Shown here: piece after piece, positions 18,535 through 24,712 of the stretch
Numbering within the stretch: position 1 is the first letter of the stretch
Layout: each line of letters begins with the position of its first letter
DNA from: a virus
Lineage: Duplodnaviria; Heunggongvirae; Uroviricota; Caudoviricetes
Strand: one strand, 5' to 3'
Virus record (IMG/VR): IMGVR_UViG_2541047887_000002
Length of the DNA: 24,712 nucleotides
Notes under the pieces: model-generated
Databases searched by the model: none
What the model was told of the DNA's origin: nothing
What the model saw: only the letters and a program-made list of their open reading frames with translations
Translations under genes and position numbers: made by a program

Positions 18535-18611
18535 TGGCGCGTTGTACTGGATTCGAACCAGTGACCGATTGCTTAGAAGGCAATTGCTCTGTCCGGTTGA
18601 GCTAACAACGC
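18535..18611 (-). tRNA. tRNA-Arg (anticodon UCU)
   Basis: Hand-folded cloverleaf: acceptor GCGUUGU/ACAACGC, D-stem GCUC/GAGC, anticodon stem AUUGC/GCAAU with loop CUUCUAA, T-loop UUCGAAU, encoded 3' CCA. Confidence 0.75.
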
Positions 18612-18624
18612 AGGGTACAGATAA

Positions 18625-18701
18625 TGGACCGCCATCGAGGACTCGAACCCCGCGCAACCAGCTTCGAAGGCTGGTGCTCTATCCTGATGAGCTAATGGCG
18701 G
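18625..18701 (-). tRNA. tRNA-Arg (anticodon UCG)
   Basis: Hand-folded cloverleaf: acceptor CCGCCAU/AUGGCGG, D-stem GCUC/GAGC, anticodon stem CCAGC/GCUGG with loop CUUCGAA, T-loop UUCGAGU, encoded CCA. The 5' end is uncertain by 1 nt. Confidence 0.65.
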
Positions 18702-18708
18702 TATGTGA

Positions 18709-18784
18709 TGGTGGCCCTTGCTGGATTTGAACCAGCGACCTGGCGATTATGAGTCGCTCGCTCTCACCTCTGAGCTAAAGGGCC
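18709..18784 (-). tRNA. tRNA with anticodon CAU, most likely tRNA-Ile2 (ileX/ileZ-like); elongator Met not excluded
   Basis: Sequence GGCCCUUUAGCUCAG...GACUCAUAAUCGC...GGUUCAAAUCCAGCAAGGGCCACCA closely resembles E. coli ileX as I recall it. Anticodon loop CUCAUAA. Confidence 0.7.
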
Positions 18785-21543: not shown

Positions 21544-21699
21544 TTACTCCTCAGGTTCGTAGACTGTGAAGACAGCGACCTCCGTCTGGCCGGTTCGGAT
21601 TCGTACCTCGCAGAGGTCTTTCCTCGTTACCAGTGCCGTCACTATGACGGTTAAACAGATGACGATCAGGGCGATTAACATCGCCTTTTGCTGCTTCAT
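21544..21699 (-). CDS. hok: Hok-family type I toxin (HokD/RelF-like, 51 aa)
   Basis: MKQQKAMLIALIVICLTVIVTALVTRKDLCEVRIRTGQTEVAVFTVYEPEE is near-identical to E. coli HokD as I recall it. AAGGAG Shine-Dalgarno upstream. Confidence 0.85.
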   Translation of the reverse strand: MKQQKAMLIALIVICLTVIVTALVTRKDLCEVRIRTGQTEVAVFTVYEPEE

Positions 21700-21952: not shown

Positions 21953-22210
21953 TCACAGGTGCGAGGAAAATATATAGCGCCCTCCATCAAGCATAACGAA
22001 ATACATTTTCCATTCATCGCCATTCCTCAATTTAATACGAAGACTTTCCCCGCAAGTGTATTTATTAAACAACTGTTCCGATGTGCTAGTAAGAGGTATT
22101 TTTACCGTTATTACAACTACTGCCCCACCATTTAACTCTCGAAGTTCAGCATCCGCATCCACAAAAGATGAATAAATGTTATGATCTGGGTAATCAACAA
22201 TTAACTGCAT
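21953..22210 (-). CDS. Hypothetical protein (85 aa) in an AT-rich island
   Basis: ATG at 22208-22210 with an AAGGAG Shine-Dalgarno 5 nt upstream. AT-rich flanks by eye. No motif recognised. Confidence 0.55.
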   Translation of the reverse strand: MQLIVDYPDHNIYSSFVDADAELRELNGGAVVVITVKIPLTSTSEQLFNKYTCGESLRIKLRNGDEWKMYFVMLDGGRYIFSSHL

Positions 22211-22349: not shown

Positions 22350-22865
22350 TCACCGTAAAACATCCTCCACGCTTATCAGTCCGTTTCGCTTCAGGTAGTC
22401 CATCGCCTTCTCCGGTAATTTGCAGTCCGGCTTGGCTTTTTTCAGTTGGCTGACCAGTCGTTTAACCCACATTGTTAATTCGCTAACCTGATTGCCGGAA
22501 GCTGGTGGGTTGTCGGCTTTACCCAGAATGACAGCACTGCAGGCCTCTTTGAGTACCCAATCAACAGCATCTTTCCATGCTCCTGTTTCGACTGGTGGAT
22601 TCTCACGCTTTACCTGTTCATAAAAGCGCACGGCTTTAACCAGTCCTTCTGATGTCAGTGGCACAGGCGGGGCAGTGAATAACGCCTGAATTTCATAGCT
22701 CGGCCTGTCGTTGCAATCCTCTTTTGTCGGTACATATTTCCAGTCACCAACCCACGGCTCCCCCTGTGAGTCCGTAATGCCTTTTTTCACGTAGCGATAT
22801 CGCCATGCAACTGGTTTTGCCTGCCCTGCCGTTTCATGTCCTTCCTGATAATTAATCTCGCTCAT
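22350..22865 (-). CDS. Hypothetical phage protein (171 aa)
   Basis: ORF whose start overlaps the stop of the upstream small ORF (ATGA). Confidence 0.6.
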   Translation of the reverse strand: MSEINYQEGHETAGQAKPVAWRYRYVKKGITDSQGEPWVGDWKYVPTKEDCNDRPSYEIQALFTAPPVPLTSEGLVKAVRFYEQVKRENPPVETGAWKDAVDWVLKEACSAVILGKADNPPASGNQVSELTMWVKRLVSQLKKAKPDCKLPEKAMDYLKRNGLISVEDVLR

Positions 22866-23038
22866 TCATCGCCCCACTCATCACAATATGCTTCGACCGG
22901 AGTTTTTCCTGCTTCGTAGTCATAACGCCATGCTTCAGCATCAGCGGCACTTCCACCGCGTAACTCTGCATAATCCATTAACAGTTCATGCCATTCTTCA
23001 AAACTGGCGTTATATTTAGTTGAACCAAAATCAGCCAT
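22862..23038 (-). CDS. Hypothetical small acidic protein (58 aa)
   Basis: Hand-translated MADFGSTKYNASFEEWHELLMDYAELRGGSAADAEAWRYDYEAGKTPVEAYCDEWGDE. Start overlaps the upstream stop (ATGGCTGA); stop overlaps the downstream start. Confidence 0.5.
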   Translation of the reverse strand: MADFGSTKYNASFEEWHELLMDYAELRGGSAADAEAWRYDYEAGKTPVEAYCDEWGDE

Positions 23039-23213
23039 TTTGTTCTTCCTCTTCGTCTTTTATTTCGTGGTATGAGTAATTGCAGTAGTTAAAGAAAATA
23101 TCTTTAGCTTCATCCTGTATTTCATCTGGTGTTGCATCATCATCCACTTCGAATTCATCCTCGAAATCTCCACCGGCTATTCCCGTTTCAATAATTATTT
23201 TGAATTTTCGCAT
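23031..23213 (-). CDS. Hypothetical small, very acidic protein (60 aa)
   Basis: MRKFKIIIETGIAGGDFEDEFEVDDDATPDEIQDEAKDIFFNYCNYSYHEIKDEEEEQNG, about 40 percent Asp/Glu. A hairpin at 23222-23240 lies just upstream. Confidence 0.55.
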   Translation of the reverse strand: MRKFKIIIETGIAGGDFEDEFEVDDDATPDEIQDEAKDIFFNYCNYSYHEIKDEEEEQNG

Positions 23214-23308
23214 TTCACTACCGCCCTTTAGGGCGGCCTCCTGATGTTCTGAGGGTGCAGAAATCCCTCCGGTTAAGGATTAAATTGTATTTACAGCGCT
23301 AAATTTAT

Positions 23309-23665
23309 TTATTCAGTTCTGGATTTTGTCGCCCTGCGTATCCGCGCTTTCGCGTTACGCTCAATCTGAATTAACTTTTCTATATTTTTCCGCCTTTCCT
23401 GTTCCTCCTGGCGCAATAGCCTTACATCATCTGCCAGTCTGGTTTCTCTTTTCGCCACTGAGAGCATCCAGTCAAACGGCTCCACAACTGCACCGCAGAT
23501 TTTACAGCGGACCTGACGCTCTTTTTCGTCAACCCGGACAGAAGCGTGATGGCAGTATGGTCTTTCCGATGGCTCATAAAGAAAATTAACCTGATTACGA
23601 GGGTCATCCTCTTTTACCGGAAATAAAACGATATTGCTTAACTCATCCTCTGGTTTTATTTCCAT
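23309..23665 (-). CDS. Hypothetical zinc-ribbon-like protein (118 aa)
   Basis: Strong Shine-Dalgarno AAGGAGAGGAG. Cys/His cluster CHH...CKIC, then a basic coiled-coil C-terminus. Confidence 0.6.
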   Translation of the reverse strand: MEIKPEDELSNIVLFPVKEDDPRNQVNFLYEPSERPYCHHASVRVDEKERQVRCKICGAVVEPFDWMLSVAKRETRLADDVRLLRQEEQERRKNIEKLIQIERNAKARIRRATKSRTE

Positions 23666-24104
23666 GCTCCTCTCCTTTGATGCGAATGCCAGCGACGCGT
23701 AATGCGTGTTCTAGGTCAATCAGGTAAAGCCAACTGCCATTTTCTTTAGGTATCATGACATGTCGCTCATCTGCATTTATCGGGTGTCCATATCGAAGGT
23801 CGTAGCGAGTCGGTAATTGAACTTCCCGCGCTTCCAGTTCAGCAATACGCTTGCTCCCATCAGAGATAACGCCTTCGTAATACTCACGCTGCTCGTTGAG
23901 TTGTGATTTTGCTTCTTCCAGTCCATCCAGCAAATCAGCGATAATATCCGCTTCCCGATGACGGATGTGACGCTTAAACGCAGCAAGAGCCGCATCACAA
24001 TCCCGTTCAGCATTTGGGCTGTCCGGGATAGCCTGATACCACGCCAGCGTCGACTGATAGTTTTGTGCTGCCTCACGAAGCGCCTCATAGTTAACCTCTC
24101 TCAT
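23643..24104 (-). CDS. Hypothetical nin-region protein (153 aa)
   Basis: ORF overlapping its upstream neighbour by 4 nt. Confidence 0.6.
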   Translation of the reverse strand: MREVNYEALREAAQNYQSTLAWYQAIPDSPNAERDCDAALAAFKRHIRHREADIIADLLDGLEEAKSQLNEQREYYEGVISDGSKRIAELEAREVQLPTRYDLRYGHPINADERHVMIPKENGSWLYLIDLEHALRVAGIRIKGEEHGNKTRG

Positions 24105-24397
24105 TGAGCCACCTCCTGATAAATCACCGCATGCCCCAGTTTCTCCGCCAGTGCCAGCTCTGCCTTAGCGCCCGCTGACCGCTGCCAGCCATTCAGCATG
24201 TAAATCGCATCCACACAACGAATCATTGCCATGCAAATATCCATGTAGTGCGGCTGTGTCAGCCCGTCCGGAAGTACTGCCGGGTTTAAGACGGTATGCC
24301 CTTCCCGTTTCAGTTCCTCTTCCACCTTGTGAAATGCCTCACGGTTGAAATTTTCATATCCCGTCATTGGACCGGCAATATAAACTCTCACCCTCAC
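24101..24397 (-). CDS. DUF4406-like protein (nucleoside 2-deoxyribosyltransferase-like fold)
   Basis: N-terminal VYIAGPMTG motif typical of this small phage family. Overlaps its upstream neighbour by 4 nt. Confidence 0.6.
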   Translation of the reverse strand: MRVRVYIAGPMTGYENFNREAFHKVEEELKREGHTVLNPAVLPDGLTQPHYMDICMAMIRCVDAIYMLNGWQRSAGAKAELALAEKLGHAVIYQEVAQ

Positions 24398-24690
24398 TCC
24401 ATCACCTCCTGAAAGTTTCCCCGATAGAACGCCAGCACACGCTGCATAACTTCGCTCCTCCTGCTCTCACGACAAATTATGTTCTGGTGCCTGTCGTAGC
24501 GGCGCATTTCGCCGTCTGGTAACGACCAGATAAGGTCCGGATCAACCACTGCAGGTTTCTTCACCTTTGCCCTTGAGAGTTTTTTGCGAGCATTTTGCCA
24601 GTCCTTACGCGCCTGTTCAGACGGGAATAACCCGTAACCAGAGTCGTATACATCGCCACTGGCAACCAGCTCTCTGGCGAGAACACTCAT
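24394..24690 (-). CDS. Hypothetical nin-region protein (98 aa)
   Basis: ORF with ATG at 24688-24690, 22 nt from the window end. Confidence 0.5.
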   Translation of the reverse strand: MSVLARELVASGDVYDSGYGLFPSEQARKDWQNARKKLSRAKVKKPAVVDPDLIWSLPDGEMRRYDRHQNIICRESRRSEVMQRVLAFYRGNFQEVME

Positions 24691-24712
24691 CAGATATCTT
24701 GTCGCACCTGTC

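Follow-up and report, generated by a model that had tools for sequence, protein, structure and literature searches.

Gene content and layout of the locus

The locus studied here lies at the end of a 24,712-nt stretch of viral DNA (IMG/VR record IMGVR_UViG_2541047887_000002), which is referred to in its full length as the window, and consists of four minus-strand open reading frames (ORFs) in series, at positions 24394..24690, 24101..24397, 23643..24104 and 23309..23665. Successive ORFs overlap by 4 nt (GTGA), 4 nt (ATGA) and 23 nt, respectively, and a Shine-Dalgarno sequence of the GGAGG type can be read ahead of each downstream start. Since all four ORFs match protein families in Pfam or PHROG, we regard them as real genes rather than chance ORFs.

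The first gene (24394..24712, minus strand) codes for a DUF977 / Ren-like winged-helix protein (PF06163, phrog_142). The sequence-only reading of this DNA had let it start at position 24690, which proved to be wrong: there is no start at this position, the frame stays open to the end of the window, and the gene codes for 140 aa in a genome 99.5% identical to this one, with a start that would fall at window-equivalent position 24816. Thus, no more than about 106 codons at its 3′ end lie within the window. It is followed on the same strand by a DUF4406 gene of 98 aa (24101..24397; PF14359, AlphaFold2 (AF2) and Foldseek), whose GTG start overlaps the upstream stop, by an Ead/Ea22-like gene of 153 aa (23643..24104; PF13935, phrog_250 and BLASTP against λ Ea22), and by a gene for a 118-aa protein with a zinc ribbon and a long heptad-repeat helix (23309..23665; PHROG 1621, AF2 model). 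The 23-nt overlap between the last two genes (23643..23665, minus strand) comprises the 3′ end of the Ea22-type gene (…AGIRIKGEEHGNKTRG followed by the stop) and the start of the zinc-ribbon gene.

Downstream of the zinc-ribbon gene lies a 95-nt spacer with a GC-rich hairpin (23214..23308, minus strand) and no terminator or promoter signature. The hairpin was rejected as a terminator, as it has no U-tract and its fold z-score of -1.2 is not significant, and no promoter-like or terminator-like site was found on the minus strand between positions 22200 and 24712. Beyond the spacer, the cassette continues on the minus strand (22350..23213) with a DUF7167 gene (23031..23213), a 58-aa ORF (22862..23038) and a second Ea22-type gene with an 'MSEINYQ' head (22350..22865), with matches to PF23768 (E 1.2e-14), phrog_519 and phrog_660. 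The same trio lies 3′ of the zinc-ribbon gene in phage ArgO145, where its last member is annotated as ead/Ea22-like. No match was obtained in an NCBIfam search of the local proteins, nor in a search of the seven local proteins against the defence-system components of PADLOC-DB (E ≤ 0.01).

An annotated E. coli prophage matches the region at 99.5% identity and has its genes in the order Cro - YdaT - replication initiator - DUF977 - DUF4406 - Ea22-like - Zn-ribbon - … - hokD - DUF968 - RusA - Q. The block belongs to an E. coli lambdoid (lambda-like) prophage, with the replication genes on one side and RusA/Q on the other, and its earlier placement at the position of the λ nin genes was correct. 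Hundreds of E. coli genome sequences contain the block at ≥95% identity, annotated with the same family names.

In λ itself, the genes from P through ren and the nin region to Q overlap by 4, 4, 4, 34, 4, 11, 4, 23 and 4 nt. As these overlaps range from 4 to 34 nt and include one of 23 nt, tight overlaps are normal in this part of the genome. Of the proposed co-translation of the four genes, the overlaps are thus real and coupling is probable, but the overlaps are not the mark of a special operon. As in the λ nin region, the genes would be read through on one transcript and would probably be coupled translationally via their overlapping stop and start codons.

Ren- and Ea22-type genes and the zinc-ribbon protein

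The protein encoded by a full-length copy of the DUF977 gene (L001) matched PF06163 (E 7.4e-29, 101 bits) and phrog_142, the family named 'Ren-like exclusion protein' (E 7.5e-45), which is matched by λ Ren as well (E 1.6e-41). In addition, the C-terminal 20 aa of the DUF977 protein are 50% identical to residues 73-92 of Ren. Judged by these similarities, the DUF977 gene is a homologue of λ Ren at Ren's position, and by analogy with Ren its product may help the phage to escape exclusion by other prophages. The DUF977 fold has been reported to be a winged helix (PMC2686095); otherwise, a literature search on DUF977, DUF4406 and LygF yielded nothing beyond passing mentions.

The Ea22-like protein matched PF13935 (E 6.3e-12, 46.7 bits at a cutoff of 27) and phrog_250 (E 5.4e-42), which also contains λ Ea22. 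BLASTP aligned its residues 1-108 to λ Ea22 at 39% identity (E 1e-17), the alignment stopping near residue 108, and a coiled-coil segment (LExAKSxLNEQREYYEGVISDGSKRIAxLE) is ~90% identical between the two proteins. The solved (NMR) C-terminal domain of λ Ea22 was not matched in a PDB sequence search with the Ea22-like protein at E ≤ 1. A match to MucB/RseB (23.5 bits) was treated as a coiled-coil artefact. The sequence comparison thus indicates that the 153-aa protein is truly homologous to λ Ea22 but differs from it in the C-terminal domain. λ Ea22 is encoded in the exo-xis region, is pro-lysogenic and forms a tetrameric coiled coil (PMC10834534, PMC7093339), and by analogy the homologue probably acts in the same way, i.e. 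by favouring lysogeny.

None of the four genes had appeared to resemble the λ nin genes by eye, and they had been put forward as candidates for nucleotide modification or regulation. When the seven local proteins were compared to λ O, P, Ren, NinB-I and Q by BLASTP, only chance-level similarities were obtained, with the exception of DUF977 versus Ren. The assumed lack of resemblance thus holds with regard to NinB to NinI, but not with regard to λ as a whole, since two of the four genes have λ homologues, the DUF977 gene in Ren (PHROG 142) and the third gene in Ea22. Homology to characterised housekeeping nin proteins, which would argue against the proposed roles, was found by half: homologues of Ren and Ea22 are present, and neither of the two is a mechanistically understood housekeeping protein.

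The 118-aa protein contains the expected metal-binding cluster (C38-H39-H40 … C54-K-I-C57) and a basic C-terminus. The four putative ligands C38, H40, C54 and C57 do not vary among 30 homologues, which supports its assignment as a zinc ribbon. The protein matched phrog_1621 at E 1.5e-56, and its AF2 model shows the ribbon at residues 43-61, followed by a helix at residues 63-117 in which the hydrophobicity of the heptad a/d positions is 0.62, compared to 0.16 elsewhere. Among 1.84 billion representatives, 1672 clusters match this protein. No Pfam family scored above its cutoff, the HMM of the TFIIB zinc ribbon (PF08271) reaching 21.5 bits at a cutoff of 29 and DksA/TraR giving no match, and Pfam scans of ten longer relatives revealed no informative extra domain. 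In Foldseek searches of the model against PDB and BFVD, nothing was found with an E-value below 0.2, the best match being 1pft at E 0.2. The protein gp05 of phage φ24B was rejected as an equivalent, as it is a different wHTH/PVQ-repeat protein. We propose that the zinc-ribbon protein would bind one zinc ion through C38, H40, C54 and C57 in the small predicted ribbon and that it probably oligomerises via a heptad-repeat helix of 46 residues with a conserved basic patch (ERNAKARIRR) at its end. With low confidence, it might be a small regulator whose binding partner is nucleic acid or a host protein that is itself conserved.

The junction between the Ea22-type gene and the zinc-ribbon gene is constant. 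The same Ea22 tail and 23-nt overlap are present in phage ArgO145 and in all of the 80 IMG/VR loci, regardless of the rest of the upstream ORF, which has 27 to 230 aa; in 34 of the 80 loci, the upstream Ea22 gene is cut to 27 codons. The 23-nt junction thus moves together with the zinc-ribbon gene. Two rare in-frame fusions of the Ea22 coiled coil and the zinc-ribbon protein hint at a link between the two genes. Since these fusions are deletions that keep the reading frame, rather than frameshifts, the idea of a programmed frameshift within the 23-nt overlap was rejected.

Predicted fold and active site of the DUF4406 protein

The N-terminus of the 98-aa protein (MRVRVYIAGPMTG) contains the motif YIAGPMTG, on which the earlier assignment of a nucleoside-deoxyribosyltransferase-like fold had been based. 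Residues 4-93 of the protein match positions 2-91 of the 91 positions of the Pfam DUF4406 profile (PF14359; E 1.9e-37, 128 bits at a cutoff of 22), and the protein also matches phrog_355, a family named nucleoside 2-deoxyribosyltransferase. The AF2 model of the protein had a pLDDT of 91.2, and its top matches among the PDB entries in Foldseek were nucleoside 2-deoxyribosyltransferases (NDTs), MilB/BcmB and DNPH1, with a probability of 1.00, E-values of 4.4e-5 to 1e-2 and TM(query) scores of 0.67-0.79 for 2a0k, 8pqr, 4ohr, 8qhr and 9da6. The flavodoxin-like β-α-β core of the model can be superposed by Foldseek on the solved NDT, DNPH1 and MilB members. The assigned fold was thus borne out, with E-values down to 4e-5.

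Our comparison with DNPH1 is based on Foldseek plus a MAFFT alignment that included diverse phage members. In this alignment of sequences, Y6, S74 and E80 of DUF4406 correspond to Y24, S98 and E104 of DNPH1. E80, the predicted nucleophile, and Y6, the predicted active-site tyrosine after β1, do not vary among 30 close and 6 distant homologues, and all three residues are kept in proteins as far apart as those of E. coli prophages and actinophages. In human DNPH1, S98 and S128 are the two serine residues that bind the 5′-phosphate; S74, aligned to S98, is invariant in DUF4406, whereas the region with S128 lies beyond the end of the protein. S74 precedes the conserved glycine by three residues, a position occupied by aspartate in NDTs and by a 5′-phosphate-binding serine in DNPH1/Rcl and MilB-type enzymes. 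D53 is invariant in the enterobacterial members, is replaced by A, E or R in distant DUF4406 proteins, and aligns two residues off D80 of DNPH1, the general-acid aspartate expected at the start of helix α2/α3.

The HMM for nucleoside 2-deoxyribosyltransferases (PF05014) scored the DUF4406 protein at 15.2 bits, below the cutoff of 28.8, and its homologue gp57 of phage N15 at 25.5 bits; the extents of DUF4406 on this profile are compatible. Searches of the PDB sequences with the single sequence and with a profile returned chance matches only, e.g. 3ndn with E 0.004 over a low-complexity stretch, and when the DUF4406 alignment was compared to the DNPH1 sequence alone by hhalign, the probability was 0.6%. 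The number of deposited phage genomes with DUF4406 is at least 545, and in other phages the gene is located among replication, recombination and nucleotide genes. A literature search for deoxyribosyltransferases in anti-defence revealed nothing relevant.

According to the model, DUF4406 is a cut-down, 98-aa version of the NDT/DNPH1/MilB fold. We infer that it most likely releases the base of a (deoxy)nucleoside 5′-monophosphate via a covalent sugar-Glu80 intermediate and would thereby adjust nucleotide pools. Since the protein lacks the C-terminal ~50 residues, does not keep D53 throughout the family and scores below the cutoff of PF05014, it could also be a binding protein rather than an enzyme.

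Co-occurrence of the genes, rival readings and comparison with known systems

In order to describe how the four genes travel, we used 75 IMG/VR loci with a ≥98% identical zinc-ribbon gene and ≥1.5 kb of upstream sequence, i.e. near-identical E. coli loci, and, for the distant zinc-ribbon and DUF4406 relatives, the neighbourhoods in a handful of phages. Upstream of the zinc-ribbon gene, a DUF977 homologue was found in 67 of the 75 loci, a DUF4406 gene in 24, an Ea22 gene of the window type in 10, and all three in 10. The DUF977 gene directly precedes DUF4406 in 22 of the 24 loci. Since DUF977 is so frequent and so regularly adjoins DUF4406, some functional linkage may exist among the co-occurring genes; the 75 loci, however, are closely related to each other and do not represent independent samples. 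In the Stx2 phage ArgO145, the Ea22-like plus zinc-ribbon cassette is located in the early-left (pL-side, exo-int) region, and distant homologues of the zinc-ribbon gene come after NinG, NinH, RusA or NinX, often just before Q. The λ-like overlaps, the small share of loci with all four genes and the early-left cassette of ArgO145 argue for mosaic delayed-early cargo rather than a functional operon, and the tightly coupled operon that the sequence-only reading had seen does not hold as a unit. We thus consider it likely that the region is an ordinary rightward delayed-early stretch of an E. coli lambdoid prophage, that its accessory genes can be exchanged independently of each other, and that they do not make up a dedicated four-gene system.

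The opposite reading, that the four genes form a dedicated co-translated module, e.g. for nucleotide modification or anti-defence, in which a DUF4406 enzyme works with DNA-binding and zinc-ribbon proteins, seems very improbable to us. The tight overlaps, the adjacency of DUF977 and DUF4406 together with the frequency of DUF977, the constant 23-nt junction and the rare fusions would all fit such a module, but unrelated λ nin genes overlap alike, the four genes occur together in 10 of the 75 loci only, each of them is found without the others in other phages, no component matched PADLOC, and the Ea22 gene ahead of the zinc-ribbon gene is so often truncated. A specific role of the zinc-ribbon/coiled-coil protein as a transcription factor that targets RNA polymerase or the Q-dependent late switch, instead of a general nucleic-acid binder, is unlikely. 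Homologues are encoded immediately upstream of the Q antiterminator gene, or one gene off, in prophages of Serratia, Yersinia and Klebsiella, but the gene is far from Q both in this window and in ArgO145, and closeness to Q simply reflects the end of the nin region. Its sole similarities are to TFIIB-type ribbons that bind RNA polymerase, but all of them are below significance and DksA/TraR was not matched in Pfam. In favour of such a role, a zinc-finger binder of RNA polymerase, Orf73/TraR, is reported to be encoded already in the λ exo-xis region (PMC9239242).

In many phage annotations, DUF4406 is named as a nucleoside 2-deoxyribosyltransferase; it would then be a true salvage enzyme by which deoxynucleosides exchange their bases, rather than a nucleotide N-glycosidase. 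We regard this as unlikely: the best Foldseek matches are indeed NDTs (2a0k with E 4.4e-5, 8pqr and 6qai), phrog_355 bears their name, and the tyrosine and the nucleophilic glutamate are kept, but MilB, BcmB and DNPH1 score nearly as well, the invariant S74 takes the place of the aspartate of NDTs, the PF05014 score is below the cutoff, and the protein has no counterpart of the C-terminal tail by which the active site of NDTs is completed. We give little credence to a more far-reaching idea, namely that the zinc-ribbon/coiled-coil family (~1,700 clusters, without Pfam entry or structural relative) is a new class of small phage regulators working with a modular Ea22 scaffold, and/or that DUF4406 is a minimal self-sufficient N-glycosidase by which temperate phages destroy a specific modified or signalling nucleotide (pool-sanitising or counter-defence).

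As a discovery, the block carries small weight; it is a reminder that common prophage cargo stays without assigned roles. The zinc-ribbon/coiled-coil family has no domain entry, and for Ren and Ea22 there are phenotypes but no mechanism. As Shiga-toxin phages carry these genes as well, it would be of some medical relevance if they influenced the choice between lysis and lysogeny.

Compared to the λ nin region, the block is likewise located between the replication genes and Q, consists of small genes overlapping in a like style, and its zinc-ribbon protein has distant homologues among NinE, NinF, NinG, NinH and RusA, whereas its proteins have no sequence similarity to any λ Nin protein. The DUF977 protein shares PHROG 142, the place directly downstream of a replication gene and a C-terminal motif with λ Ren, but has 140 aa compared to 96 aa, and the Pfam DUF977 model gives no score for Ren. 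With λ Ea22, the Ea22-like protein has the N-terminal head and the coiled coil in common; its C-terminal domain is unrelated to that of λ Ea22, and its gene lies in the rightward nin-equivalent region instead of between exo and xis. The zinc-ribbon protein resembles TFIIB-type ribbons (PF08271) in size and in having a four-ligand ribbon, and these gave its best, though insignificant, HMM and Foldseek matches; their ligands are four cysteines, in contrast to the C-x-H…C-x2-C arrangement found here, and they lack the heptad helix of 55 residues that follows the ribbon. Finally, DUF4406 has the β-α-β core, the tyrosine, the S-x-G-x3-E motif and the nucleophilic glutamate in common with the NDT/DNPH1/MilB enzymes (PF05014 clan), but it is one third shorter (98 aa compared to 130-160 aa), ends after β4 and thus lacks the C-terminal ~50 residues of NDTs and DNPH1 including the second phosphate-binding serine, and does not keep the putative general-acid aspartate family-wide.

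The gene block and its position in the prophage

The sequence-only reading had described four overlapping minus-strand genes at one end of the window, and this was borne out. The ORFs of DUF977 (24394..24690 as first proposed), DUF4406 (24101..24397), the Ea22-like protein (23643..24104) and the zinc-ribbon protein (23309..23665), all on the minus strand, overlap successively by 4 nt (GTGA), 4 nt (ATGA) and 23 nt, and a GGAGG-type ribosome-binding sequence lies 5' of every downstream start. Since all four match protein families, they are genes and not chance ORFs. The start proposed for the first gene, 24690, had to be revised: as the DUF977 reading frame is open up to the window end and an E. 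coli chromosome with 99.5% identity has a 140-aa gene here, 24690 is an internal methionine. By that chromosome, the start lies about 100 nt outside the window.

The window is an E. coli lambdoid prophage with an HK97-type head and extends from tail genes to the early region. Read along the direction of transcription, the genes of the matching genome are Cro, YdaT, replication initiator (phrog_3729), DUF977, DUF4406, Ea22-like, zinc-ribbon, DUF7167, two small ORFs, hokD, DUF968, RusA and Q. By position, the block thus occupies the nin-equivalent region, as had been proposed. Between 22200 and 24712, the coding strand showed no promoter-like or terminator-like sites, which is compatible with read-through from the early rightward promoter. 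The 95-nt spacer 3' of the zinc-ribbon gene (23214-23308) contains, just upstream of the DUF7167 start, a GC-rich hairpin (GCCGCCC-UAAA-GGGCGGU) with no U-tract and a fold z-score of only -1.2. By correspondence with the annotated E. coli prophage locus L001, the type I toxin gene hokD lies downstream of the cassette (~21544-21699, minus strand), and three tRNA genes (Arg, Arg, Ile) lie between Q and the lysis genes (~18535-18784). Of 5426 complete E. coli genomes, 535 contain the region over at least 80% of its length. The block is real but ordinary, and already annotated in E. coli genomes under the same family names. What retains interest is the predicted chemistry of DUF4406 and the unclassified zinc-ribbon/coiled-coil family.

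Neighbours of the zinc-ribbon gene and mosaic junctions

The close packing of the four genes had been taken as the sign of a special co-translated operon. From P/ren to ninI/Q in λ, the overlaps between consecutive genes are 4, 4, 4, 34, 4, 11, 4, 23 and 4 nt, and overlapping starts and stops are how lambdoid early genes are normally packed; the overlaps argue for translational coupling, not for common function. The genomic co-occurrence check that had been suggested was done on 80 IMG/VR loci carrying a zinc-ribbon gene at least 98% identical, in which homologues of the neighbours were located by tblastn, with upstream counts restricted to the 75 loci having at least 1.5 kb upstream of this gene. 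A DUF977 homologue (51-99% identical) was present upstream in 67 of the 75 loci, DUF4406 in 24, the window-type Ea22 gene in 10 and all three in 10, and no four-gene unit emerged. In the most frequent layout (35/75), no more than about 500 nt separate the DUF977 gene from the zinc-ribbon gene downstream. In Stx2 phage ArgO145, a cassette of Ea22-like gene, zinc-ribbon gene (100% identical), small ORFs and second Ea22-like gene is located on the leftward early side, flanked by the recombination genes and int. DUF4406, in turn, stands alone in 545 deposited phage genomes, including N15, Vibrio phages and many actinophages, in the last of which it lies among replication, recombination and nucleotide-metabolism genes. 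Since the neighbours vary among loci and DUF4406 occurs on its own, the block is mosaic cargo rather than an operon in the functional sense; the sequence-only reading was largely right as a description, but its inference of a special operon is not supported.

The junctions around the zinc-ribbon gene are in line with a mosaic. In all 80 loci (L010-L089), the upstream ORF ends in …AGIRIKGEEHGNKTR(G/R)*, exactly 23 nt inside the zinc-ribbon gene (junction at 23643-23720 of the window, minus strand; just upstream of the zinc-ribbon start in the IMG/VR loci), and the body of this ORF ranges from 27 to 230 aa. The 27-codon form (VSEISYQASITAGIRIKGEEHGNKTRG) is a vestige in which the Ea22 head is fused directly to the Ea22 tail, and it is the only Ea22-type remnant upstream in 34 of the 80 loci. 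The identical 17-residue tail ends the 344-aa Ea22-like protein of ArgO145. The ribosome-binding site of the zinc-ribbon gene sits in the 3' end of an Ea22-type gene and moves along with the zinc-ribbon gene. The conserved head and tail of Ea22 look like recombination linkers for the exchange or deletion of Ea22 bodies. As another gene (22350..22865, minus strand; 171 aa, phrog_660, no Pfam family) carries the Ea22-type head 'MSEINYQ', two Ea22-headed genes flank the zinc-ribbon, DUF7167 and 58-aa genes, an arrangement also present in ArgO145. In two rare in-frame fusions, P0002 (on 4 E. marmotae contigs) and P0006, the Ea22 head and coiled coil (…RIAELEARE) are joined to the zinc-ribbon protein (IKPEDELSN…), which stands in place of the Ea22 C-terminal domain; this is a weak hint at functional compatibility of the two proteins.

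The zinc-ribbon/coiled-coil protein

The zinc-ribbon protein matches phrog_1621 and no Pfam family; its score on the TFIIB ribbon model, 21.5 bits, is under the cutoff of 29. The metal-binding cluster and basic tail noticed by eye were confirmed: C38, H40, C54 and C57 are invariant in 30 Enterobacterales homologues, and the same holds for an N-terminal F-P motif and for much of the C-terminal helix (LRxEE..RRxNIEKLIQIERNAKARIR). In the AF2 model (pLDDT 78.8), the N-terminus is disordered and is followed by a small ribbon and a single helix (63-117). Across 27 diverse members, a heptad pattern is clear at residues 67-112 of this helix, with a hydrophobic occupancy of 0.62 at a/d positions versus 0.16 at the others, and a conserved basic face (N104, K106, R108, R110) closes the helix. 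Foldseek searches of the model against PDB and BFVD gave nothing significant. We tentatively predict that the protein would form a zinc-stabilised coiled-coil oligomer binding nucleic acid or a conserved host factor.

When 1.84 billion representative proteins were searched with a profile, 1672 clusters matched with E ≤ 1e-3, of which 269 had E ≤ 1e-10; some members are longer and GC-rich-looking, with no recognisable extra domain. Among more distant homologues, the gene upstream encodes an Ea22-like protein in Enterobacter phage Tyrion, NinG in a Klebsiella phage (L005 5001-5384), NinX in Serratia phage Parlo, RusA in a Serratia prophage (L098 4001-4384) and NinH in a Yersinia prophage (L099/L100 4001-4387). 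In the Klebsiella, Serratia-prophage and Yersinia cases, the homologue lies at the far end of the nin region, just before the Q antiterminator gene, either adjoining it or one gene away. The commonest database form, P0009 (132 aa, 3282 member sequences), has 14 additional residues in its annotation, with the N-terminus MCHAPLAFASKESDV-EIKPEDE… and Val replacing Met1; in such prophages, translation may actually begin there, at a GTG, and the longer annotation may be an over-extension.

Comparison with known proteins

Defence-system and NCBIfam models gave no match to the local proteins. The DUF4406 protein belongs to PF14359 (E 1.9e-37), a DUF of the NDT clan with many members. Its AF2 model, built from 30 homologues (pLDDT 91.2), has the topology β1-α1-β2-α2-β3-α3-β4, and the nucleoside-deoxyribosyltransferase-like fold suspected from its signature was recovered by Foldseek against PDB: the top matches are nucleoside 2-deoxyribosyltransferases (2a0k, E 4.4e-5, TM 0.75); MilB and BcmB, which are CMP/hmCMP N-glycosidases, come next, then human DNPH1 and, at a greater distance, TIR domains. 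By sequence, it fails PF05014 membership (15.2 bits versus a cutoff of 28.8), and unlike the solved enzymes of the clan it ends after β4, without some 50 C-terminal residues. In a MAFFT alignment of DNPH1, whose sequence was checked against PDB beforehand, with six distant phage DUF4406 proteins, Y6, S74 and E80 are conserved throughout and align with Y24, S98 and E104, the nucleophile, of DNPH1; the boundaries of the match to the PF05014 profile fit this alignment. D53 is invariant in enterobacterial members but not conserved across the wider family. Serine at the S74 position marks nucleotide-specific hydrolases (DNPH1/Rcl, MilB), whereas nucleoside transferases carry Asp there. Because of this serine, we favour a putative nucleotide N-glycosidase over a transferase; no solved structure or assay was found for any DUF4406 member. 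In N15 (L091 3001-4309), DUF4406 is encoded by gene 57, which overlaps the start of the DNA cytosine methyltransferase gene 58; this could hint at a link to modified pyrimidine nucleotides.

The Ea22-like protein (PF13935, E 6.3e-12; also phrog_250) is 39% identical to λ Ea22 over its residues 1-108 (BLASTP, E 1e-17), with a nearly identical coiled-coil segment, and nothing in λ Ea22 or PDB corresponds to its last 45 residues. Published work (PMC10834534) describes Ea22 as a coiled-coil tetramer whose C-terminal domain varies and which favours lysogeny. The full-length DUF977 protein matches PF06163 (E 7.4e-29), for which a winged-helix fold was reported (PMC2686095), and phrog_142 'Ren-like exclusion protein' (E 7.5e-45). 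Since λ Ren also matches phrog_142 over its whole length (E 1.6e-41), shares a C-terminal motif with the DUF977 protein (50% identity, 20 residues, E 4e-5) and has the same place directly 3' of the replication gene, ren is the λ counterpart of the DUF977 gene. The absence of resemblance noted from the sequence thus holds for NinB-NinI, to which none of the local proteins is similar, but does not extend to Ren and Ea22: two of the four genes are homologues of λ genes.
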